In this document: positions 14,161-44,630 of the stretch, one piece after another
Layout: the number at the start of each line of letters is the position of its first letter
Numbering within the stretch: position 1 is the first letter of the stretch
Origin: Candidatus Nomurabacteria bacterium
Lineage (GTDB): Bacteria; Patescibacteriota; Minisyncoccia; Phycocordibacterales; UBA918
DNA length: 64,000 nt
Direction: 5' to 3'
Assembly: GCA_020632035.1 (NCBI GenBank)
Contig: JACKGG010000002.1
Location: 24,095 to 88,094, forward strand
Program-made: the position numbers and the translations under genes
Notes under the pieces: model-generated
What the model was told of the DNA's origin: nothing
The model's input: the letters and a program-made list of their open reading frames with translations, nothing else
Databases searched by the model: none

Positions 14161-14231
14161 GGGTCTATAGTTTAGTGGTAAAATTTCGGTCTCCAAAACC
14201 GACGTCCGAGGTTCGAGTCCTCGTGGACCCG
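14161..14231 (+). tRNA. tRNA-Trp (anticodon CCA)
   Basis: Acceptor GGGTCTA/TGGACCC; anticodon stem TCGGT/ACCGA with loop CTCCAAA; T-arm CGAGG-TTCGAGT-CCTCG; discriminator G. CCA not encoded. Confidence 0.8.
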
Positions 14232-14232
14232 C

Positions 14233-14542
14233 ATAAAACATTACGTCCTAATGCGTCTAGCATTGGGGCGTTTATGTTTTACGGTACTAAGAGGACTCGA
14301 AAAGGTTGCCTGATATTTTGTGACGTAGGAGCAAAAATATCGACAACCTGTACTGAATCTGTAAGATTCGAGTCCTCGTGGACCCGCATAAAACATTACG
14401 TCCTAATGCGTCTAGCATTGGGGCGTTTATGTTTTACGGTACTAAGAGGACTCGAAAAGGTTGCCTGATATTTTGTGACGTAGGAGCAAAAATATCGACA
14501 ACCTGTACTGAATCTGTAAGATTCGAGTCCTCGTGGACCCGC
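14233..14542 (+). repeat. Two perfect tandem copies (155 bp each) of a tRNA-3'-end-linked structured element (family I), directly after tRNA-Trp
   Basis: Units 14233-14387 and 14388-14542 are identical. Each has an A/T hairpin (aaaacat…atgtttt), an anti-T segment gaggactcgaa, the core gaaaaggttgcctGATATTTTGtgacgtaggagCAAAATATCgacaacctgtactGAATCtgtaaGATTC, then gagtcctcgtggacccgc, a copy of the tRNA-Trp T-loop and 3' end. Overlapping track ORFs here are artefacts. Confidence 0.85.
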
Positions 14543-24472: not shown

Positions 24473-24558
24473 GCCCGGGTGGTGGAATCGGTAGACACGA
24501 GGGACTTAAAATCCCTTGCCTTTTAAACGGCGTGCGGGTTCAATTCCCGCCCCGGGCA
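24473..24558 (+). tRNA. tRNA-Leu (anticodon TAA), long variable arm
   Basis: Acceptor GCCCGGG/CCCGGGC; anticodon stem AGGGA/TCCCT with loop CTTAAAA; T-arm CGGGTTCAATTCCCG; discriminator A. Confidence 0.8.
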
Positions 24559-24561
24559 CCG

Positions 24562-24987
24562 AAATAATGAGTCAGACCTTGTGTCTGGCTTATTATTTTG
24601 GTCAAGGGAATTGAAAAGGTTAGTCAGATATTTTGGAGCTTGCGAACAAAATATCGACAACCTGTACTGATCCTGTAAGGATCAATTCCCGCCCCGGGCA
24701 CCGAAATAATGAGTCAGACCTTGTGTCTGGCTTATTATTTTGGTCAAGGGAATTGAAAAGGTTAGTCAGATATTTTGGAGCTTGCGAACAAAATATCGAC
24801 AACCTGTACTGATCCTGTAAGGATCAATTCCCGCCCCGGGCACCGAAATAATGAGTCAGACCTTGTGTCTGGCTTATTATTTTGGTCAAGGGAATTGAAA
24901 AGGTTAGTCAGATATTTTGGAGCTTGCGAACAAAATATCGACAACCTGTACTGATCCTGTAAGGATCAATTCCCGCCCCGGGCACCG
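24562..24987 (+). repeat. Three tandem 142-bp copies of a tRNA-3'-end-linked structured element (family I), directly after tRNA-Leu(TAA)
   Basis: Units 24562-24703, 24704-24845 and 24846-24987 are essentially identical. Two identical 60-aa track ORFs 142 bp apart confirm the period. Each unit has a terminator-like hairpin (aataatgagtcagac…gtctggcttattatttt), an anti-T segment gggaattga, the core gaaaaggttagtcaGATATTTTGgagcttgcgaaCAAAATATCgacaacctgtactGATCCtgtaaGGATC, then aattcccgccccgggcaccg, a copy of the tRNA-Leu T-loop and 3' end. Confidence 0.85.
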
Positions 24988-25103
24988 AAAGTAGAAGTCG
25001 GAACTGGTTTCCGGCTTTTACTTTTGATTGTAATCGTCAGATCAGTTTTACATTGAAATGATCATAGGATAAATGCAAGTCAACGCACATATTCCAACAT
25101 ATT

Positions 25104-30641: not shown

Positions 30642-31181
30642 CTAGTTTGTCACTGGAGGTTCAATACTTCTATCAACGGGACCTGGGTTTCCTCCTCCGG
30701 TGCCAGGACCAGGATTACTTCCTCCAGTGCCGGGGCCTGGATTACTTCCTCCAGTACCTGGACCAGGGTTTTCACCTCCTGTGCCGGGACCGGGGTTTTC
30801 ACCTCCTGTGCCGGGACCGGGGTTTTCACCACCGGGGATACTCGTATCAGGTAATACAAAAGCATCTCCACAGTCTGGTCCGCTTGGGTTATTGGCACAA
30901 TCTAGTTGTTTATCAAGACCAAAAGTAGAAGTAGCAATACTCAATATAGCAAAAGCTGAAAGCATCACCACTAGGCCAATTATCCCAAAAGTGATATGCT
31001 TTACTCCCTGCCCCCTCGCTGTTTCGTTGGCAGAATTAACAAAGTATTCTACACAACCCCAAACAAAAACAAGAAAAGCTACCGCACTAAGAAGAGCGAT
31101 AGTAGGAAACAATATAATGTCATTAAATTTATCTACAAATTTAGCAGCTTCTTCGGTCGCTTGTTGTTGAGGTGTTGCCAT
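30642..31181 (-). CDS. Two-helix pilin-like membrane protein (VirB2/TrbC-like topology) with C-terminal (GENPGPGTG)x6 repeat tail
   Basis: Two hydrophobic helices (ILFPTIALLSAVAFLVFVWG…/…TFGIIGLVVMLSAFAILSIA) separated by a short polar loop, then six nine-residue Gly/Pro repeats. Confidence 0.7.
   Translation of the reverse strand: MATPQQQATEEAAKFVDKFNDIILFPTIALLSAVAFLVFVWGCVEYFVNSANETARGQGVKHITFGIIGLVVMLSAFAILSIATSTFGLDKQLDCANNPSGPDCGDAFVLPDTSIPGGENPGPGTGGENPGPGTGGENPGPGTGGSNPGPGTGGSNPGPGTGGGNPGPVDRSIEPPVTN
30683..30843 (-). repeat. In-frame 27-bp tandem repeat (6 copies) encoding GENPGPGTG
   Basis: cctcctccggtgccaggaccaggattactt… and related units repeated head-to-tail; the track protein shows GENPGPGTGG x3 then GSNPGPGTGG x2 and GGNPGP. 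Confidence 0.85.
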
Positions 31182-35752: not shown

Positions 35753-38224
35753 CTAAACAAACACCACGCTCGCAATCGAATCCCCAGCTCGCATCTTCAT
35801 TACTCGCACTCCCTGAGTCTGTCGGCCAAGAGTTGGCACTTGTTTCAATGGAAGCTTAATCACCTGCCCTTTCTTGCTCATGATCACCAGCTCTCCTTCT
35901 TCCCTTTCTTCTCCAGTTAAAATAATACCCCTTACAATAGAACCGGTCTTATCTGTCACTTTAGCGGTCTTGATACCTGAACCACCCCGCTTTTGTACTT
36001 TGTATTCTTTAGCTGGTGTGGCCTTACCGTAGCCGTGCTCGGTAACTATTAGCACAACCCGGTCTTTATCGGAAGACTTAAGCACATCGGCTGAAACAAT
36101 CACATCTCCCTTACCGAGCTTCATAGCGGTTACTCCAGCGGCCGTTCGTCCCATTTCTCGCACATCACTTTCTTTGAAGCGGATAGCCTGACCTTTTTCT
36201 GTAATCAAAGACACCTCATCTTTCTTACCAACGAACAAAGCATCAATTAAGGAGTCATCGCCTTTGAGAGTAATCGCGATCAGTCCACTCCGGCGGACAT
36301 CTTTGAAGGCAGCCGCATCGCTCTTCTTAGCTACACCGTTCTTAGTGATCATCATCAGTGACCAGTCGCCATCCCAGTCTTCCTTTCGCACCGCTAAGAC
36401 CGAGGTGACTCTTTCTTCAGCGTTCATAGACAAGAAGTTCATGATCGACTTACCCTTAGTCGCTCGCCTTCCTTCTGGGATCTCGTACATCTTGCACTGA
36501 TAAACTTTTCCAGCGTCGGTAAAGAAGAGGAGGTCACTGTGAGCAGAAGTAGTTAAAAGAGTAGTTACCATATCCTCTTCTTTCGTATTCAAGTCAACCA
36601 CTCCGACCCCTCCTCGCTTTTGTACTTTATATTCAGCTGGGTTGGTACGCTTCACGTATCCACCTTGGGTTAACACCAGCACACTTTCATCGTCTGGCAC
36701 TAAGTCTTCTGGGTTGAGTTGCTTTACCCCACCTTTCACAATCTTAGTTCGGCGATCGTCACCGAATTTTTCTGCTACTTCCAGCAAGTCTTTCTTGATT
36801 ATCGCTAGCATTTTAGCCTTACTCTTCAAAATAGCCTCAAGCTCTTTGATCAGCTTTTGGATAGCCGCTAGTTCGTCTTCGATTTTCTTGCGTTCAAGTC
36901 CAGCTAGTTTCTGGAGACGCATATCGAGGATCGCTTGCGCTTGAATAGCGGAAAACTTGAACTCCTTCATCAAAGCGGCGTGAGCAGTTGGGACGTCTTT
37001 TGAGGCTCTGATGAGCTTGATTATCTTGTCTATATGATCAAGCGCTTTTTTTAGACCAAGGAGAATGTGCTCGCGGTCCTTAGCTTTATTTAAGTCATAC
37101 TGAGTTCGACGTCGAATTACTTCCACTCGGTGCTTAACATACTCTTGCAGTATTACCTTAAGCGACAAAGTCTGCGGCACACCATCTACCAAGGCCACCA
37201 TATTGTAGTGGAAAGTATCTTCGAGCTGAGTGTGCTTGTATAGTTTGTTTAAGACAGTCTGAGGCTGAGCTCCAGTCTTCAACTCAATCACAACTCGGAT
37301 GTCATTGGTCGACTCATCACGCATCTCTCGAATTCCTTCGATCTTTTTATCTCGCACCAGATTTGCAATCTTTTCTTGCAGGTCGGCTTTGTTAACTCGG
37401 AAAGGAATCGAAGTAATTATTATTGAAAAAGCACCCCGTTTATCTTCTACGATCTCTGCCTCTCCCCGCACAACCACTCCACCTCGACCAGTTGCATAAG
37501 CTTGGGCAATGGCTTTTTTATCGAAGGCAATAGCTCCCATTGGAAAATCTGGTCCTTGAACAAACTTTAGTAGATCGTCGGTATTAGCCTCTGGATTGTC
37601 GATCAGGTATGCGACCGCGTCTGCCACTTCGCGCAAGTTGTGCGGAGGAATATTAGTAGCCATACCAACTGCAATCCCAAGTGAACCAAGGAGAAGCAAG
37701 TTTGGTGCTGCTGCTGGAAGTACCACTGGCTCTTTCTTAGTACCATCGAAGTTTGGTCGCCAATCAACTGTGTCTTTTTCTAGATCACGAAGTAGTTCCT
37801 CTGCCACCTTAGACATTTTCGCCTCGGTGTATCGATAAGCGGCGGCTGAATCACCGTCGATTGATCCGAAGTTTCCTTGTCCAATAACCAGTGGATATCG
37901 TGTGGAAAAGTCCTGCGCCAGCTTAACCATAGCCTCGTACACAGAAGCATCGCCATGGGGATGGAAACTACCGAGTACGTCTCCTACTACCGTCGCAGAC
38001 TTGCGGAATTTGGCAGTAGAGGTAAGGCCGTTGAGACGCATTGAGTAGAGAATCCGGCGGTGCACTGGCTTTAAGCCGTCGCGCACATCTGGTAGAGCAC
38101 GCTGGGTAATAACCGACATGGCATAGTCTAGATACGCAGTCTCCATCTCACCAGTAATACTCTGAGTGATGATTTTATTATGTTGTGGAATGATTGGCTC
38201 TTCGGCCTGGGTCTTTTTCGGCAT
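35753..38224 (-). CDS. gyrA: DNA gyrase subunit A
   Basis: …[29 protein letters not shown]… (active-site Tyr region), followed by C-terminal beta-pinwheel repeats; 823 aa. Confidence 0.93.
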
Positions 38225-38853: not shown

Positions 38854-39495
38854 TTATACCTTTAAGACAGCCACTTCTCCTGACATTTCACGCACGTCTT
38901 TCTTCTTTAGAGTTAACTTATCTACCGGCTTCAAGTCTTCGTTACCTTCTTCTTTAAGAAAAGCTTTTAGAGCGGTGGCGTCATAGTGCATCGGGATTAT
39001 CAGTCTAGCTTCTAGCTTTACTGCTAATTTCGAAGCTTGTGGTACTTCTAGCACATCACCACCGCCAATTGGGACAAACAATATGTCGATATCACCAAAC
39101 TCACCGAGGATCTTTGGGTCGATTTCTGGATTATTTAGTGCGCCAAGAAAAACAATATTCATTTCCTCTAGTCGTACTTGGTAAATGGTGTTGAAGCAGT
39201 CTTTTTTTTCATAATTTGTAGCAACACCAAAGCCGTGAGCTGTCACCTGGCCGATTTCGTACTCACCAGGGCCATCAACTAGAAACGGTTGTTTTGAGCC
39301 GTGGGTTACGTTTTCCACCCCGTTAAAATCATCGTGCCAGAGCGAAACAAACGCCACATCTGAGCCGAACTTGGCTGGACTTAGTTTGGATTTTTTAGAA
39401 ATTGGATTGAAAGCAATTGTAGTGTCACCAAACGAAACTTTAAAACACTGACCGCCGTGAAATGTAATAACCATAGTGGAGATAGTATAAAGCAT
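38854..39495 (-). CDS. Metallo-beta-lactamase-fold hydrolase (UPF0173-like)
   Basis: …ITFHGGQCFKVSFGDTTIAFNP… and …DILFVPIGGGDVLEV… resemble small MBL-fold metal-dependent hydrolases. Confidence 0.55.
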   Translation of the reverse strand: MLYTISTMVITFHGGQCFKVSFGDTTIAFNPISKKSKLSPAKFGSDVAFVSLWHDDFNGVENVTHGSKQPFLVDGPGEYEIGQVTAHGFGVATNYEKKDCFNTIYQVRLEEMNIVFLGALNNPEIDPKILGEFGDIDILFVPIGGGDVLEVPQASKLAVKLEARLIIPMHYDATALKAFLKEEGNEDLKPVDKLTLKKKDVREMSGEVAVLKV

Positions 39496-39541
39496 AAAGT
39501 CCAGAACAAGAAGTATTTCATGTTGTTCTGATGAAATACTA

Positions 39542-39710
39542 GAAAATTACCAAGCTTTTGTGAGACGAGTGCTTCATTCTAGGTTGAATATATTCGTCTC
39601 CAGTACGCAAAACCCATAACTCGCTTCACTCAAACAGATGGGTTTTACTCTTACGACTCACTATTCAACAGCTACCATTCCGCAAGTCTCACAAAAGCTT
39701 GGTAATTTTC
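39542..39710. repeat. 169-bp element bounded by perfect 25-bp inverted repeats (MITE-like or long-stem RNA), containing a T7-promoter-like 13-mer
   Basis: Left arm gaaaattaccaagcttttgtgagac (39542-39566) is the exact reverse complement of gtctcacaaaagcttggtaattttc (39686-39710). Internal hairpins agacga…tcgtct and gcaaaacccat…atgggttttac. tacgactcactat at 39652-39664 matches the T7 class III promoter core. Confidence 0.8.
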
Positions 39711-39934
39711 AGGTAAAAACTTGACAAATACTTTAAATATGCTATCCTTTTCGTGTTCCCAAGCGGAACAAACTTCAACCTTCATAAATGTTTTCGGGAG
39801 AAAAATTATGCGAAGGGAGAAGCGCTTCATCGCGCGCCAAAGCAGGTCGGAAACGACCTAAGCGCTGAGCCAACAGCGTCAATATAAGCTAAATGGCAAA
39901 ACCCGTTAACTAAAACTAACTAGAGGGATTGAGC

Positions 39935-40087
39935 ATGCTTAATCTTCACGGACCGCCCGCCAAGGGCAAACTGGCTTCGTCCAAGGTAAATTTTTATTTT
40001 AAACGCGGCGACAACGACAACCTGCGCGACGACGGCGGCCACCTGGGCGACGACGGCGGCCACCTGGGCGATATTATCTCAGACTGA
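39935..40087 (+). CDS. Candidate small ORF (50 aa) with good RBS; contains the GC-rich tandem repeat
   Basis: AGAGGGA 5 nt before ATG. MLNLHGPPAKGKLASSKVNFYFKRGDNDNLRDDGGHLGDDGGHLGDIISD. Below the track's length cut-off. A 17-aa ORF (39808-39861, MRREKRFIARQSRSETT) with RBS GGGAGA lies upstream. Confidence 0.3.
   Translation: MLNLHGPPAKGKLASSKVNFYFKRGDNDNLRDDGGHLGDDGGHLGDIISD
40028..40069. repeat. 21-bp GC-rich perfect tandem direct repeat (2 copies)
   Basis: gacgacggcggccacctgggc occurs twice head-to-tail; about 75% GC in an otherwise AT-rich intergenic region. Confidence 0.85.
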
Positions 40088-40245
40088 CGACCAGGCCCGC
40101 TGCGCCGAAACCGGTTTTGGTTATCGGGCAAAGTAAAGCTCGGTAGACCAAATGTCCGGTTTGTTTGAAAACATGTTCTTTCAACCTAAACGTGCCCCTC
40201 AGGACTAGGAACCCTGTTGAATCGACAGGCACAAGAAGCTCAACA

Positions 40246-40291
40246 AAGCCCTCGGGCGCAACCATCGCAGTGTTGCACCCGGGGCTTTTTT
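40246..40291 (+). terminator. Strong intrinsic terminator closing the 39.7-40.3 kb non-coding transcript region
   Basis: Stem aagccctcgggcgcaac / gttgcacccggggctt (15 bp, two non-Watson-Crick pairs) followed by TTTTTT. Confidence 0.65.
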
Positions 40292-40391
40292 ATAGACAAA
40301 TTCGTTTATATATATTATATTGTCGCCACCTAAAAGGTAATTAATAGTTTCTAGCGACACACGTTTAACCCTCTGTATATGGGTATGGCCG

Positions 40392-40421
40392 GTGGAAAAT
40401 TTTCTTAAGAAAATTTTCCAC
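40392..40421. promoter_or_regulatory. Perfect 30-bp palindrome in the rpsA upstream region (candidate operator)
   Basis: gtggaaaattttctt|aagaaaattttccac; centred about 65 bp upstream of the rpsA ATG. Confidence 0.5.
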
Positions 40422-40472
40422 CTCGAGAAATGGTTACAGAGACGCGTGTCGTCGGAATAATAAAATAATAAA

Positions 40473-41585
40473 ATGTTTGGATTTGGAAAATCTAACGACA
40501 GCGAGTCAAACACCGCTGTTGCAACTGGAGTGATGGACAAGTATTTGGCCGAAACACCAGCCGCTCCCCAAGAAGGAGATATTGTAGAAGGAGTAGTATC
40601 AGCTATTGGACGAGCTCGAGTTTATATCGATATCGCACCATTTGGTACAGGTCTTATCTACGGACGTGAATACATGAATGCGCGAGATATTCTGCGTAAG
40701 GTTCACCCGGGAGACACCATTGCTTCTAAAGTAGTGATGTCAGAAAACGAAGATGGCTACATTGAGCTTTCACTTAAAGAAGCGAGGCAGGCTCTCATCT
40801 GGGCAGACGCCGAAGAAGCAGTTAAGAAAGGGACTATTCTTAGCCTTGAAGTTAAGGAAGCCAACAAGGGTGGACTTATCATCGACTGGCAAGGAGTACA
40901 AGGATTCCTACCAGCTTCACAGCTTTCTTCAGAAAACTACCCTCGAGTATCAGACGGCGACAAGGACAAAATCCTTACCGCTCTTAATGAACTAGTTGGT
41001 AAGCATCTATCAGTAGTAATGATCACAGCTGATCCAAAGGAACACAAGCTAATCTTCTCTGAAAAGGGACTACAAGAAAAGGAAGAGAAAGAAGAAAAGG
41101 TTAACAAGTATGATGTTGGAAATGTTATCAAGGGTGAAGTGACTGGTGCCGTAGACTTCGGAATCTTCGTTAAGCTCGAACCAGGTCTTGAAGGTTTGGT
41201 CCACATCTCTGAACTCGACTGGGGTCTAGTGGAAGACACTAAGGCACTATACAAGGTAGGTGACCCGGTAGAAGTTAAGGTGATTGAAGTGAAAGACGAT
41301 AAGATTTCTCTTTCTATCAAACAACTAAAAGAAAACCCATGGGTTTCGGCTGCAAAGAAATACAAGAAGGACCAGATAGTAGACGGAGTAGTCATTAAGT
41401 ACAACAAACACGGAGCTTTAGCATCTATTGAAGAAGGTGTAGCTGGTTTGGTTCACGTTTCAGAATTTGAAACAGTAGAAAAACTAAAATCATCACTATC
41501 TCTAGGAAATGTTTACAAGTTTAAAATCACTCTTTTTGAACCAAATGAACAGAAGATGACTTTGTCGACCAAGGATGTTGCTTAA
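40473..41585 (+). CDS. rpsA: 30S ribosomal protein S1 (four S1 domains)
   Basis: Repeated S1 OB-fold motifs (…GDIVEGVV…, …GTILSLEVKEANKGGLIIDW…, …GNVIKGEVTGAVDFGIFVKL…, …DQIVDGVVIKYNKHGALASI…). Confidence 0.9.
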   Translation: MFGFGKSNDSESNTAVATGVMDKYLAETPAAPQEGDIVEGVVSAIGRARVYIDIAPFGTGLIYGREYMNARDILRKVHPGDTIASKVVMSENEDGYIELSLKEARQALIWADAEEAVKKGTILSLEVKEANKGGLIIDWQGVQGFLPASQLSSENYPRVSDGDKDKILTALNELVGKHLSVVMITADPKEHKLIFSEKGLQEKEEKEEKVNKYDVGNVIKGEVTGAVDFGIFVKLEPGLEGLVHISELDWGLVEDTKALYKVGDPVEVKVIEVKDDKISLSIKQLKENPWVSAAKKYKKDQIVDGVVIKYNKHGALASIEEGVAGLVHVSEFETVEKLKSSLSLGNVYKFKITLFEPNEQKMTLSTKDVA

Positions 41586-41610
41586 TAAGCACCTACTCAC
41601 TTAGTAGAAA

Positions 41611-41654
41611 AGCACGAAAAAGCTGGCCTCGGGCCAGCTTTTTCGTGCTTTATC
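41611..41654 (+). terminator. Intrinsic terminator after rpsA
   Basis: Stem agcacgaaaaagctggcc / ggccagctttttcgtgct followed by TTAT. Confidence 0.65.
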
Positions 41655-41726
41655 CCCAATTACTTGCTTTTTAGGTTATTTTGTGGTATTATATAAAAAT
41701 GACATTTACCTATAGGAGGGATAGTC

Positions 41727-41933
41727 ATGTTATCAAATAAGCATAAGCTGGATCGCCACTTGCCTGGGCTGGTGGCGGTAATGGTTGTTTTGGGGACAGG
41801 TCTAGGCCTGTTAACCGGACACATATCCGGTGACACTTCCCTGAAATTTTTGGTTTTGGGAGGAATCTCTGTCTGCGCACTAAGCAGGTTGAGAATCCGT
41901 CTCCAACAAAATAAACGGTCACCGAGCTGTTAA
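41727..41933 (+). CDS. Hypothetical small membrane protein
   Basis: Strong RBS AGGAGGGA 5 nt before ATG; 68 aa with two hydrophobic helices; terminator immediately downstream. Confidence 0.5.
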   Translation: MLSNKHKLDRHLPGLVAVMVVLGTGLGLLTGHISGDTSLKFLVLGGISVCALSRLRIRLQQNKRSPSC

Positions 41934-41958
41934 GAGTGGCCCAAGAGCTTATAGCCGA

Positions 41959-41992
41959 GCCCCCCGCAAATCTGCGGGGGTTTACTTTGTTT
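41959..41992 (+). terminator. Intrinsic terminator after the small membrane ORF
   Basis: Stem cccccgca / tgcggggg followed by TTTACTTTGTTTG. Confidence 0.6.
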
Positions 41993-42584
41993 GATTCACC
42001 CTATTCATCGCTACCTTTGCCCCATCTAAAATAATCGTCTCCAGCGCTAACTGGACTTTCTTATATACTTCAGGCAAATCTCCCTTTTCTGTTAGGCCAA
42101 AAGGTTTTAGCACAAAACGCTCGAGCGGCCCACCTCCTTGCGGACGCTTCACTTTCCCGGTCCAAATGCTCTTGGGCGCAATCCCAACCCTCACTCGCAC
42201 AAATTCCTTTGTTCCTAACTTATCTATAATAGACTGAACTCCATTATTGCCACCGGCTCCCTTGCCTTTTCCTATCTTTACTTCACCAAACGGTAGATCA
42301 ATATCATCATGGACTACAATAAGTTTTGAGATGTCGTCCTTTGGGACAAACTTTACCACTGCACTCCCTGAGTTATTCATATATGTATCTGGGTAAAGAA
42401 CCTTTACCTCACCCCCTGCAACCACCCCTTCCGTAACCTCTCCGGAAAATTGCTTTGAGCTTACAAGAGCTGGTAATTGGTTTTCCACTAGGAAATAGTC
42501 AAGTGCCAGCCAGCCGACATTATGTCTAGTGTTGCTATACTTTTCTCCAGGGTTTCCAAGGCCTACGATGTAATACATATTCAA
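41982..42584 (-). CDS. pth: Peptidyl-tRNA hydrolase
   Basis: MYYIVGLGNPGEKYSNTRHNVGWLALDYF… and …VVHDDIDLPFGEVKIGKGKGAGGNNGVQSII… are canonical Pth motifs. Confidence 0.9.
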   Translation of the reverse strand: MNMYYIVGLGNPGEKYSNTRHNVGWLALDYFLVENQLPALVSSKQFSGEVTEGVVAGGEVKVLYPDTYMNNSGSAVVKFVPKDDISKLIVVHDDIDLPFGEVKIGKGKGAGGNNGVQSIIDKLGTKEFVRVRVGIAPKSIWTGKVKRPQGGGPLERFVLKPFGLTEKGDLPEVYKKVQLALETIILDGAKVAMNRVNQTK

Positions 42585-42605
42585 CTAATTAAACCATAAT
42601 ACACG

Positions 42606-43817
42606 TTAAACATCTCTACCGTAGTCTCCTGCCTCGTGTTTCTTTATTATGTACCAGTACATTGAAAATGAAACTATAATAAAAAATATGCCCAGAATTA
42701 AGAAGCTTTTTTGATATGAAAAATGTAAAATCAAAGTACCTAAGACAAAACTGATAGCACCAGAAATAAGAGACTTAAGTTGAGAATAGACTGATAATAA
42801 AGTTGCTTTGAACTTGCTACCACTAATAATCTGTAGTTGGTATCCTTCATCTATTTTAGAAAATCCCCACTGAATGGCATTTGCCAAAACAAACACTACT
42901 GCCACCACTAACCAACTATCTATTGACCACGCAATCAAATACAAAACCCCAAACAAGAATATCTGCCAAAGATAAAAAGAAGGTAAAGTTAGAACATTTT
43001 TAATTCTTCCACTATAAGCCAGCATCAGAGAGGCTAGCCCTCGACCTAAACCAAACAGTACCCCGAACCAAATAACTGATATTCCAACAAATTCTTGATA
43101 CGGATCCCTAAACATAGAAAAACTTGTAGCGGTAGCTCCAATAAAGGCCGACAACAAAACGACACTGAAAAAATTGAGACGGTAAGCTTCTTTCATAACT
43201 TGCTTAAAATTGGTAATCCCAACTTCTTTAACGTGCTCTGGAGTGACAGGTGGTACGACTAGACTAAAAACTACAAATAAACCGATTACGTCCATAATCA
43301 GAGCTATCAGAAAAGGTACTTTGTAACTAATACTAACCAAAAACGGCACCAACACCGTGAGTATAATCGGTACGGAAAACCCGATCGCTGACACTTTTCC
43401 CATTATCCGGCTGTATTCGTGTTCTATATTTAGAGCTCGTAGAGTTTCGTGCATAAAGGCACTTCCTGTACCACTCTTAAATGCCCAACTGGCACACATA
43501 ATAGTAGAAGCCAACATTAATAAAGTGACACTATTTGCAAACAAAAACAAAATCGTAGAGCAGACCATCAGAATACTAGACATTACGAGTGTTTGCTTGT
43601 GACCAAGCTTGTCTGAAATATAACCACTCGGTATTTCTAGAAAAAAAGAGACTACATTCCCCACTAACAAAATAAGTCCGACCGTCTGGACGGTTACGTC
43701 AGGAATAGTCAGATAATATACACTGATGATAGCGGCGAAGATTCGTTTGTTTACGACTCCCATCACTGTGTACTTCCAAATATTTGACCTGAGTCTTCTT
43801 TCTAGTTCAGCAACCAT
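42606..43817 (-). CDS. Major facilitator superfamily transporter
   Basis: 403 aa, about 12 predicted TM helices, MFS-like loop (…GYISDKLGHKQTL…). Confidence 0.7.
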   Translation of the reverse strand: MVAELERRLRSNIWKYTVMGVVNKRIFAAIISVYYLTIPDVTVQTVGLILLVGNVVSFFLEIPSGYISDKLGHKQTLVMSSILMVCSTILFLFANSVTLLMLASTIMCASWAFKSGTGSAFMHETLRALNIEHEYSRIMGKVSAIGFSVPIILTVLVPFLVSISYKVPFLIALIMDVIGLFVVFSLVVPPVTPEHVKEVGITNFKQVMKEAYRLNFFSVVLLSAFIGATATSFSMFRDPYQEFVGISVIWFGVLFGLGRGLASLMLAYSGRIKNVLTLPSFYLWQIFLFGVLYLIAWSIDSWLVVAVVFVLANAIQWGFSKIDEGYQLQIISGSKFKATLLSVYSQLKSLISGAISFVLGTLILHFSYQKSFLILGIFFIIVSFSMYWYIIKKHEAGDYGRDV

Positions 43818-43985
43818 AAATTGCTAGTATTTATTACACAGAAACCGCTCTTCTCCTAACCACTTGATAACACTCATATTCTTTCAAGAAACCCTAAACT
43901 GCAGTTACTAAACACAAACCTACACGTATTTTGGGAAATTTGTTTTTAGTTTAAAAATTTCGTATACTAGTGATTAATTAGTCCT

Positions 43986-44630
43986 ATGTCACTATTCTCA
44001 AACAAAGAAATTACTAACGAAACCTCTGATCAAGAGAATACTGAAGACATGAAAACTGAACACCCTCTAACCGAGATCGTTCGCTTCTCCATCATTGCAA
44101 TTCTTATCGTTATTCCGATTAGAATGTTTATCGCTCAGCCATTCATCGTGTCTGGAGCTTCAATGGATAACACTTTCCACAGTGGTCAGTATTTGATTGT
44201 GGATCAAGTCACCTACCTCTTCGAGAAACCTAGCCGTGGAGACGTGATTGTTTTTCGTTATCCAAAGGATCCTTCTAAATTCTTTATCAAAAGAGTCATT
44301 GGCCTACCCGGAGACACTCTATCTATCGAAAATAGCAGGGTGACAATTGTTAATGAGGCTAATCCGGATGGTTTCACCCTAGATGAACCATACATAAAGT
44401 CTATGGAGCCTACCTCACCCTTCACCGAGACCCTCGGCGAGCGCGAATACTTCGTCATGGGTGACAACCGTGACCAAAGCTCAGATTCAAGGAGCTGGGG
44501 AGTTTTGCAAGAAGAAAGGATAGTCGGTAGAGCCTTGGTGCGATTGTTTCCGCCGAGCGCCCTAGATTATCTGCCAGGAGCCACCAGTTACATTTACGAA
44601 AAGAACCAAGACGCCGTTACCAAAAATTAG
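43986..44630 (+). CDS. lepB: Signal peptidase I
   Basis: Catalytic Ser box (SGASMDNTF), Lys box (…KRVIGLPGDTLSIEN…), …VMGDNRDQSSDSRSWG…. Confidence 0.9.
   Translation: MSLFSNKEITNETSDQENTEDMKTEHPLTEIVRFSIIAILIVIPIRMFIAQPFIVSGASMDNTFHSGQYLIVDQVTYLFEKPSRGDVIVFRYPKDPSKFFIKRVIGLPGDTLSIENSRVTIVNEANPDGFTLDEPYIKSMEPTSPFTETLGEREYFVMGDNRDQSSDSRSWGVLQEERIVGRALVRLFPPSALDYLPGATSYIYEKNQDAVTKN

Follow-up and report, generated by a model that had tools for sequence, protein, structure and literature searches.

A covarying rpsA leader and a putative micro-ORF transcription unit in a variable intergenic island of a Candidatus Nomurabacteria genome

The window analysed here is a 64,000-nucleotide (nt) stretch of Candidatus Nomurabacteria DNA (contig JACKGG010000002.1, positions 24,095 to 88,094) in which a gap of 977 nt, at 39496–40472, separates a gene for an MBL-fold hydrolase from the divergently oriented rpsA gene for ribosomal protein S1. 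Our analysis resolves this gap into a three-part mosaic that consists of a rod-like hairpin (39537–39715), a unit of very short open reading frames (ORFs), termed the micro-ORF unit (39721–40291), and the rpsA promoter with its leader (40293–40472). The gap holds no single new RNA gene; it holds instead a predicted micro-ORF transcript and, separate from it, an rpsA leader that is the one robust covariation-supported structured RNA of the interval and that the first-pass annotation of this DNA had not singled out. We regard a composite reading, in which an S1 leader adjoins a lineage-restricted micro-ORF transcription unit and a palindromic spacer, as moderately probable. Under this reading the unit would give rise to a translated, fast-evolving micro-ORF RNA rather than a conserved structured non-coding RNA (ncRNA), and the functions proposed for it below are putative.

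Comparison with relatives provides the framework for this interpretation. The genome is of the Paceibacteria type within Patescibacteria, and the nearest metagenome-assembled genomes (MAGs) in an S1 protein scan carry the labels Nomurabacteria, Kaiserbacteria or Paceibacteria; the same scan supplied 77 related loci, mostly from related MAGs, which together with other contigs compared with the window are designated by L-numbers. The gene order gyrA, hypothetical gene, MBL-fold gene, gap, rpsA, pth is conserved in these relatives, and the gap between the MBL-fold gene and rpsA ranges from 185 to 3260 nt across about 60 of them, many having only ~190 nt. Homologues in relatives exist only for 40283–40472, the last ~190 nt of the window's gap, and searches with the 39496–40310 insert by blastn and tblastx against the 77 related loci and against the window returned no homologue. 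Because its length varies and only these last ~190 nt have homologues, the gap is, as judged from these comparisons, a variable intergenic island, and in some relatives it contains the rpsA promoter and leader alone.

The conserved right-hand part of the island comprises the following elements.

40293–40321, + strand: rpsA promoter (TAGACA, 17-nt spacer, TATATT), present family-wide, including genomes without the micro-ORF unit
40319–40472, + strand: structured rpsA 5′ leader of ~150 nt, from alignment A1, RNAalifold, pair counts and a covariance model
40355–40363 paired with 40445–40454, + strand: leader stem P1, long-range
40371–40376 paired with 40436–40441, + strand: leader stem P2

In an independent MAFFT alignment of 43 sequences (alignment A1), 99.7% of cells were paired, five of the six P2 pairs covaried, and 89 cells carried double changes compared with 24 ± 8 in shuffles, while slid controls reached at most 48% pairing. 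A covariance model built from this alignment matched about 70 loci, each exactly once and in every case upstream of rpsA; its sole match in the window was 40319–40475 (119 bits, E 5e-23). A second alignment of 72 sequences (A2), which was fitted to the model and therefore favours pairing, showed compensatory changes at all 15 pairs, 97.4% of cells paired and a covariation score of 0.585 versus 0.203 in shuffles (0 of 500 as high), with slid controls at 47% or less. The leader also has a small 5′ hairpin, a conserved internal region (..AUGGCC..YGAG..) to which about half of the sequences add a variable, palindromic apical hairpin (40391–40422 in the window), and an A/U-rich linker without a Shine-Dalgarno (SD) sequence that runs to the AUG at 40473. 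No Rfam family matched it, including the E. coli-type and Cyano-S1 leaders (E≤10, 39400–40550). We describe it as a candidate for a new, lineage-specific ribosomal-protein leader; it probably acts as an S1 control element, autogenous or translational, with the 40293–40472 region as the most likely site at which S1 synthesis would be controlled.

Upstream of this leader lies the micro-ORF unit, whose parts are listed here.

39721–39748, + strand: promoter P, with TTGACA at 39721–39726, a 16-nt spacer, TG at 39740–41 and TATCCT at 39743–39748; 10 of 12 positions match
39755–39769, + strand: 5′-terminal hairpin GUUCC-CAAGC-GGAAC at the predicted transcript start, from the minimum free energy (MFE) structure
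39808–39861, + strand: 17-amino-acid (aa) ORF MRREKRFIARQSRSETT, with SD GGGAG at 39796–39800, 7 nt upstream
39845–39858, + strand: GAAA-tetraloop hairpin ggtcggaaacgacc inside the 17-aa ORF, read from the sequence
39862–39887, + strand: post-stop hairpin GCGCUG-AGCCAA-CAGCGU followed by CAAUAUAA, read from the sequence
39935–40087, + strand: 50-aa ORF, termed ORF A, with SD GAGGG at 39923–39927, 7 nt upstream
40004–40071, + strand: three in-frame 21-nt repeat units, a perfect period-21 duplication at 40026–40071 and a degenerate third copy at 40004–40024
40063–40107, + strand: hairpin CCUGG (40063–67) / CCAGG (40091–95) around the ORF A stop, with a GC-rich post-stop box, read from the sequence
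40107–40163, + strand: extended imperfect hairpin GAAACCGGUUUUGGU ... ACCAAAUGUCCGGUUU, from the fold and found in this species alone
40247–40291, + strand: intrinsic terminator T, a ~16-bp bulged stem at 40247–40285 and six T's (U6 in the RNA) at 40286–40291, with a dG of -23.3 kcal/mol

Much of this anatomy had been recognized in the first-pass annotation, and both small ORFs with their SD sequences, the tetraloop hairpin and the strong terminator hold up on closer analysis. The TTGACA-type promoter is likewise present, although its earlier placement at 39726–39760 was a few bases off, and the 21-bp tandem repeat reported at 40028–40069, which encodes DDGGHLG twice, sits inside the longer perfect duplication (2.5 copies at 96% by TRF). 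The extended -10 element reads TGcTATCCT in the window and TGCTAGTAT in relatives, and a local 5′ hairpin also begins most of the related units that were folded (MFE). The 17-aa ORF ends in a module at 39859–39887 composed of a stop codon, a GCGC-type hairpin and CAAUAUAA, and a similar module, with AACAUAAA after the hairpin, follows the mini-ORFs of L001, L108, L125 (twice) and L006. ORF A would encode 52 aa if it started at TTG 39929. The terminator's U-tract directly adjoins the -35 box of rpsA; a simple terminator scanner missed this terminator because its loop and bulges lie beyond the limits of that scan. The unit is GC-rich relative to its surroundings, and from its promoter to its terminator it is predicted to yield an RNA of ~535 nt, from near 39755 to 40291; over 39755–40295 the + strand folds better than shuffles (z = -4.76; - strand, z = -3.07).

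The unit has a conserved position. The pattern TTGACAAATAYTTTN5TGCTA occurs once in the window and, with identical relative placement and orientation, once in each of L001, L002, L005 and L063, and a metagenome scan with this promoter pattern added L108, L087/L116, L114/L113/L110, L150 and L125, all of them adjoining the MBL-fold gene, rpsA or both; promoter variants occur in L007, L006, L206 and L208. At least 14 related loci have the unit's promoter, layout and terminator at this position. Their shared order is a promoter, an SD-led ORF A of 7–50 codons, a stop codon with a GC box (cGGCGCCGGCC, the relatives' counterpart of the window's post-stop box), in many cases a mini-ORF, and a terminator. 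The window, L063 and L208 are among several loci whose GC box lies inside a CCUGG...CCAGG hairpin, and most related units have an equivalent terminator whose T-run mostly abuts the rpsA -35 box (T-run + ATAGACA).

The interior of the unit is far less constant. When nine promoter-to-terminator units were aligned with MAFFT, the parts that aligned were limited to the promoter, the terminator and the mini-ORF, which the window does not have, and no covariance model of the unit was built for that reason; MFE folds of the units showed no common architecture beyond the 5′ hairpin and the terminator. By eye, ORF A of the window and the 19-aa ORF A of L063 (MKDPPVQLAPIDFYFANLD) share GACCGCC and ATTTTTATTT...CGCG...AACCTG...GACTGA, a resemblance that MAFFT did not cleanly recover. 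The 50-aa ORF of the window looks like the equivalent of ORF A, lengthened by the three 21-nt in-frame units. ORF A alleles with an N-terminal xDPP occur in L063, L108, L206 and L006, and the window has GPP and L208 APP at this point. At the 3′ end of ORF A the nucleotides are conserved between L063 and L208 in different reading frames, which points to RNA- or DNA-level rather than peptide constraint there. As a separate observation, L114 (4140–4360) and L150 (860–1090) have in common a ~200-nt GC-rich segment in their 5′ halves, GGTTGCAGAGYCGTTCGGCGA ... CCTGCAGCAC ... TTCATTTYAAT, with a long stem and no Rfam match, which could on its predicted fold be a subclade-specific structured RNA domain.

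The mini-ORF is the most conspicuous of the conserved elements. It encodes Met-x-Trp-Pro-stop (MxWP) as ATG NNN TGG CCC TAR in four independent loci (L063, L087, L114 and L150), the second codon being free; in L002 and L027 the Pro codon is the synonymous CCG, and L027 reads MNWPP-stop. Within 1.4 Mb of fetched DNA the exact pattern occurred only inside units, on the + strand and behind an SD, and a back-of-envelope estimate rather than a program's output puts the chance expectation at about 0.3 matches in 2.8 Mb. Longer variants read MNWYPE, MKWYSE and MGKLRPE, with MVWIEM and MTWKSV both in L125, and their stop is followed by the GCGC hairpin and AACAUAAA. Because ATG and TGG are invariant, the second codon is free and CCC and CCG are synonymous, these patterns argue for codon-level selection on the mini-ORF. 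The window unit is without an MxWP mini-ORF.

SD usage sets the units apart from the genomes that carry them. Strong SD+ATG combinations occur at 4.6 per kb in units; the corresponding densities are 0.35 per kb for the family loci, a ~13-fold difference, and 0.2 per kb for the window. Only about 5 of 43 long ORFs in the window have an SD, which is the background rate, and the core genes are essentially without one. Many core genes of the window have a TATAAT- or TGCTAGTAT-like -10 box 7–15 nt before the ATG (for example at starts 1795, 6868, 35652, 52375 and 53689), so that mRNAs in this genome would be mostly leaderless or very short-leadered.

Close relatives reveal how quickly the unit changes. 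Across 39696–44000 (4.3 kb), contig L198 and the window are 99.2% identical, their 11 mismatches and 2 gaps all being confined to about 80 nt (40026–40105); L198 is without one 21-nt repeat unit and consequently encodes a 43-aa ORF (protein P0121) in place of 50 aa. Its substitutions cluster over the last five codons of ORF A and the post-stop box, with a 1-nt indel after the stop, and a small palindrome is kept in the two versions (GAUAUUAUC versus GUAAUUUUAUUAC). The strain-variable patch therefore consists of the 21-nt repeat together with the hairpin and post-stop box at 40063–40107. Conservation of the 50-aa ORF and of its repeat, proposed earlier as a check, did not materialize: the ORF is an orphan without a Pfam match whose sole relative among 5.8 billion protein clusters is the conspecific 43-aa variant, and the repeat differs in copy number between conspecific strains. 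The S1 proteins of L205 and L203, both from a sister species, are identical, and the two loci diverge at about 0.6% of positions except in a block of ~84 nt, within which the SD and ORF A are swapped for unrelated sequence (MKDPPVQLAPIDFYFANLD versus MDVLKSSSIHNTAALN). The variable block has conserved flanks, AATCAACCTGCCTT ... CGGCGCCGGCCAGGCTGAC in the L063 species and 39990–40025 ... 40108–40140 in the window. On a larger scale, L217 agrees with L210–L216 in the S1 protein and over 2.8 kb of DNA farther downstream (3 SNPs), and upstream of the rpsA promoter an L150-type unit replaces the L114-type one, with a sharp boundary at that promoter. Contig L201 (459–1033), identical to window 39658–40115 and then continuing into unrelated DNA of ~65–70% GC, was considered as a structural variant and rejected as a probable chimeric metagenome assembly joined near CGCCGAAACCGG.

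Taken together, these features could plausibly be explained as follows. An extended -10 promoter would make a ~535-nt RNA bearing a 5′ hairpin, SD-led micro-ORFs and a terminator directly before the rpsA promoter. At the family level, selection would preserve the promoter, a short first ORF that is translated into a largely unconstrained peptide, its stop in a GC-rich hairpin or box, and often the MxWP mini-ORF, while the rest of the unit would turn over by indels, repeat expansion and allele replacement. The window's copy is a derived, atypical and possibly degenerating member of this family, with a weaker -10 box, 4-mer SDs, no MxWP mini-ORF and a first ORF lengthened by the repeat. An arbitrary short ORF, a stop in a GC hairpin and a terminator make up the signature of leader peptides, and a translation-dependent regulatory RNA is favoured for this reason. 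By analogy with such systems we tentatively propose that the act of translating the micro-ORFs matters and their peptides do not, the RNA reporting translation in the manner of a leader peptide either through read-through into rpsA or in trans; we consider this possible rather than probable.

Several observations weigh against the composite reading or parts of it, beginning with the model-fitted alignment A2 mentioned above and the putative nature of S1 binding by the leader. Promoter, terminator and SDs of the unit are sequence predictions. The SDs of the window unit are 4-mers only, in a background of about 11% per ATG, and with weak SDs, no strong SD+ATG and no mini-ORF the window copy could be decaying. 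A search for an antiterminator was negative, the 5′ arm of the terminator pairing with upstream sequence no more than in shuffles in the units tested; rpsA keeps its own conserved promoter between the terminator and the gene; and a 124-aa gene (L001) or 300–400 nt (L114, L150, L125 and L206) lie between terminator and rpsA. A classical attenuator is not supported, given the missing antiterminator, the separate rpsA promoter and the intervening DNA. Allele replacement could also represent general plasticity of intergenic islands and not selection on an ORF, and the unit is invariant across seven L114-type contigs of one species, so hypervariability is not universal.

The turnover of ORF A invites a different explanation, in which the peptides themselves are the product and the unit is a micro-protein locus under diversifying selection that exchanges alleles like pheromone or bacteriocin pherotype loci, ORF A being the variable peptide and MxWP a second product. 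The SD-led ORFs, the sharp replacement of ORF A between near-identical flanks, the recurrence of xDPP alleles across species (L063, L108, L206 and L006) while the conspecific strain L205 differs, and an in-frame 21-nt polymorphism that preserves frame and stop codon all speak for it. Yet the peptides, of 7 to 50 aa, have no common features, the flanking genes examined include no receptor, processing or export gene, and the variable patch extends past the stop into non-coding DNA with a 1-nt indel. The nucleotide conservation of the ORF A 3′ end across frames (L063 versus L208) and the exchange of the whole island, not the ORF alone, in L217 also tell against it, and we judge a peptide locus rather unlikely.

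A novel ncRNA was the leading one of three readings offered in the first pass, the others being a small-protein operon and a regulatory leader; as a rival it would be a structured, trans-acting RNA that works through its fold or by base-pairing, with the small ORFs as incidental features. What stands from that proposal is the discrete promoter-to-terminator unit, and its small-ORF or leader-like versions fit better, because what the family conserves is a strong SD with ATG, a Trp codon that never varies and Pro codons that change only synonymously; the ~530-nt unit as a conserved structured ncRNA is not supported. Its own promoter and strong terminator, its GC-richness against the surroundings, the stronger folding of the + strand, stable local hairpins including a GNRA tetraloop and the lack of a protein homologue are what an ncRNA would lead one to expect, and a variable seed region is possible. 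However, no Rfam family matches even at E≤10, the interior has neither sequence nor structure conservation in the 77 loci and no homologue there, conspecific strains replace it and differ in the ORF region, and what relatives conserve are SD, ATG and codons. We regard this explanation as doubtful.

The unit could also be a largely non-functional, decaying cassette whose terminator insulates the rpsA promoter and gives it an A/T-rich upstream element, the ORFs being noise. The gap is a hot spot (185–3260 nt) in which different genomes hold unrelated orphan genes, the unit is absent in many relatives, the junction of T-run and ATAGACA is conserved, and the window copy combines a weakened -10 box and weak SDs with an expanded repeat and the loss of the mini-ORF. 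For the family as a whole, though, the 24-nt promoter pattern, the SD-led ORF with its GC box and MxWP are kept where other intergenic DNA is unalignable, and strong SDs are enriched 13-fold, which makes a mere cassette quite improbable. More speculative, and in our estimate very unlikely, is an extension of the translation-dependent reading in which the micro-ORF RNA is a sensor or titrator of ribosome state in a leaderless, SD-less lineage. In such a scheme a particular ribosome population, S1-free or EF-P-limited ribosomes for example, would preferentially translate the rare strong-SD micro-ORFs, with their DPP motif and Trp-Pro-stop mini-ORF, and this translation would tune rpsA read-through or act in trans.

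A divergent tmRNA, RNase P, SRP or 6S RNA missed by the models is close to refuted: its size, own promoter and terminator and GC-richness would suit, and Patescibacteria RNAs can be divergent, but ARAGORN found no tmRNA in the window and Rfam no match in the gap or in the related loci searched, and such an RNA would be conserved although the interior is not and many relatives have only ~190 nt here. The earlier failure to find tmRNA, RNase P RNA or SRP RNA signatures is borne out by both programs, and the Rfam/Infernal scan suggested at that stage leaves every part of the gap without a known family. On the whole window ARAGORN reported 8 tRNAs and no tmRNA, and Rfam at the gathering score reported tRNAs only; at E≤10 on 39400–40550 there was no meaningful match, including RNase P, SRP, 6S, tmRNA and the S1-leader families. 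Among relatives nothing relevant appeared at the gathering score (16 loci) or at E≤0.5 (5 other metagenome loci). A sub-threshold His_leader match in the gap (16.7 bits versus a gathering score of 49) consists of the terminator alone. A diversity-generating retroelement acting on the variable patch was rejected because the window has no second copy of 39496–40310 that could be a template and because the strain changes are not adenine-specific and include indels. Full-text literature searches returned nothing on small RNAs or S1 leaders in Patescibacteria.

The remaining part of the mosaic and the borders of the island are given below.

38854–39495, - strand: MBL-fold hydrolase gene (Pfam PF13483, E 2e-23), left border
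39537–39715, no strand: species-specific rod-like hairpin of ~180 nt between the divergent promoters, with 30-nt arms at 39537–39566 and 39686–39715 that are 93% complementary
40473–41585, + strand: rpsA, ribosomal protein S1, with four S1 domains (Pfam), right border

These flanks agree with the first description, and the wider neighbourhood consists of gyrA (35753–38224, - strand), a gene for a 158-aa hypothetical protein, the MBL-fold gene, the gap, rpsA and pth (41982–42584, - strand). The rod hairpin folds with -81.9 kcal/mol (z = -9.06), has no copy elsewhere in the window or in the related loci, and is a species-specific palindromic spacer. Metagenome assemblies break at it: L198 ends at 39696, and two assemblies break at or near palindromes there. 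Short perfect GC-rich hairpins also lie in the first 30–60 nt after the MBL start in L002, L003, L006, L016, L019, L114 and L125 (in L006, GGCAAAGTGGGCGGAACGC-GAA-GCGTTCCGCCCACTTTGCC), conserved in position and not in sequence, where the window has its 180-nt rod; a role as insulator, operator or terminator is possible. The true start of the MBL-fold gene is possibly Met8 (39474, - strand), as suggested by a TATACT -10 box 9 nt upstream of that ATG, inside the first 21 nt of the longest ORF, and the orthologue is called as 206 aa in L202/L203; with such a start the mRNA would be leaderless. An exact look-up of the window's MBL protein returned no record. Beyond the rpsA stop, a 43-nt imperfect palindrome (41609–41651, 93% self-complementary) lies between the convergent rpsA and pth and is likely, from its sequence, a bidirectional terminator.

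The gaps of some relatives also hold orphan + strand genes with strong promoters, SDs and terminators of their own, as in the following examples.

L001 gap 252–875 and 1396–1770; L003 gap 548–1156; L009 gap 158–664; L125 ~740–1290; L116 ~510–2890, + strand: orphan island genes

The products of several of these orphans are very acidic proteins whose C-terminal tails are rich in Arg/Lys (for example ...RGYGAQRAPKWQRGWTGRTRRMHRQRYYYL), and Pfam and PHROGs gave no family for them. A likeness of ORF A to the N-terminus of these acidic proteins, suspected by eye (LNxFG, PP, DF, DDGxxLG), was rejected, the local alignment being no better than shuffles (p about 0.23) and BLAST giving an E of about 22.

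Elsewhere in the window, perfect (100%) tandem arrays directly continue two tRNA genes at 14212–14542 and 24540–24990, the first being tRNA-Trp followed by 2.1 copies of 155 nt and the second tRNA-Leu(taa) followed by 3.2 copies of 142 nt. In each array unit a repeat of the 3′ end of the tRNA is accompanied by a hairpin that has a T-run and by a stretch complementary to the T-arm of the tRNA, and a ~60-nt module, AAAGGTT..GATATTTTG..CAAAATATCGACAACCTGTACTGA.CTGTAAG, is common to the two arrays. Possible explanations are tandem duplications of an att-site-like kind, a small mobile element and an artefact of assembly. A 27/54-nt tandem repeat at 30677–30830 (5.5 copies, 81% matches) has the consensus CGGGACCAGGGTTTCCTCCTCCAGTGC.

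Almost nothing is known of RNA-level regulation in Patescibacteria (Candidate Phyla Radiation), and the rpsA leader, which about 70 Paceibacteria-type loci contain and Rfam does not list, is a candidate addition to RNA family databases that would extend control through S1 ribosomal-protein leaders to a third, unrelated architecture. The micro-ORF transcript combines a conserved position with a hypervariable interior and with strong SDs in genomes that hardly use them, and offers a handle on leaderless versus SD-led initiation and on the birth, exchange and loss of small ORFs in a hot spot. Taken soberly, the window itself contributes a 50-aa repeat ORF that is an orphan, strain-variable and possibly decaying. 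A ribosome-state sensor, if true, would mean that S1 and translation capacity in Patescibacteria are under a kind of feedback that had not been described before.

Among known systems, the leader-peptide attenuators (trpL, pheL, hisL; tnaC; mgtL/mgtP) resemble the unit in that a promoter precedes a short SD-led ORF (a few to ~20 codons), the stop codon is surrounded by GC-rich hairpins, a terminator lies just upstream of the next gene and the sequence of the peptide is largely unimportant. A short SD-led ORF upstream of an intrinsic terminator is found here too, its translation being predicted, and possible stall features are present in the DPP or PP near the ORF A N-terminus and in the Trp-Pro-stop mini-ORF; polyproline and C-terminal Pro stall ribosomes. 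In contrast to those attenuators, no antiterminator was found here, the downstream gene has its own promoter, DNA or genes may intervene, and the unit has no run of regulatory codons. Dual-function small RNAs (SgrS/SgrT, RNAIII/delta-haemolysin, SR1/SR1P) are promoter-to-terminator RNAs of a few hundred nt that also encode a small peptide. The unit, as a stand-alone RNA with encoded small peptides, is like them, but theirs have conserved base-pairing regions and conserved peptides, neither of which is seen in the unit.

The rnTrpL/peTrpL system of Sinorhizobium meliloti is similar in being a short terminated transcript with a tiny ORF that contains one or more Trp codons, and both its RNA and its leader peptide act in trans according to two reports (PMC6614838, PMC7968998). 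It differs in that it precedes trpE(G) and is conserved, whereas the unit has no amino-acid biosynthesis context and a hypervariable interior. A looser parallel is rpsU (bS21) in Flavobacteriia, described as SD-based autoregulation that involves a rare strong SD in an SD-poor lineage (PMC9976891). In both settings a strong SD singles out an unusual regulatory situation linked to a protein of the small ribosomal subunit; there, however, the SD is on the ribosomal-protein gene and here on micro-ORFs beside an SD-less rpsA, so the parallel is one of analogy.

The rpsA leaders of E. coli and cyanobacteria are the closest counterparts of the leader described here, with which they share a structured 5′ untranslated region (UTR), A/U-rich single strands and the lack of a canonical SD. 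In E. coli the rpsA UTR is the site of autogenous translational control, the S1-interacting leader is limited to Gammaproteobacteria, and the cyanobacterial rpsA motif is unlike it (PMC3616713). The leader at 40319–40472 differs from these in its long-range P1/P2 stem around a conserved GGCC...YGAG region and in its optional apical hairpin, and it displays the covarying 5′-UTR structure of an autogenous ribosomal-protein leader, through which S1 would putatively repress its own synthesis.

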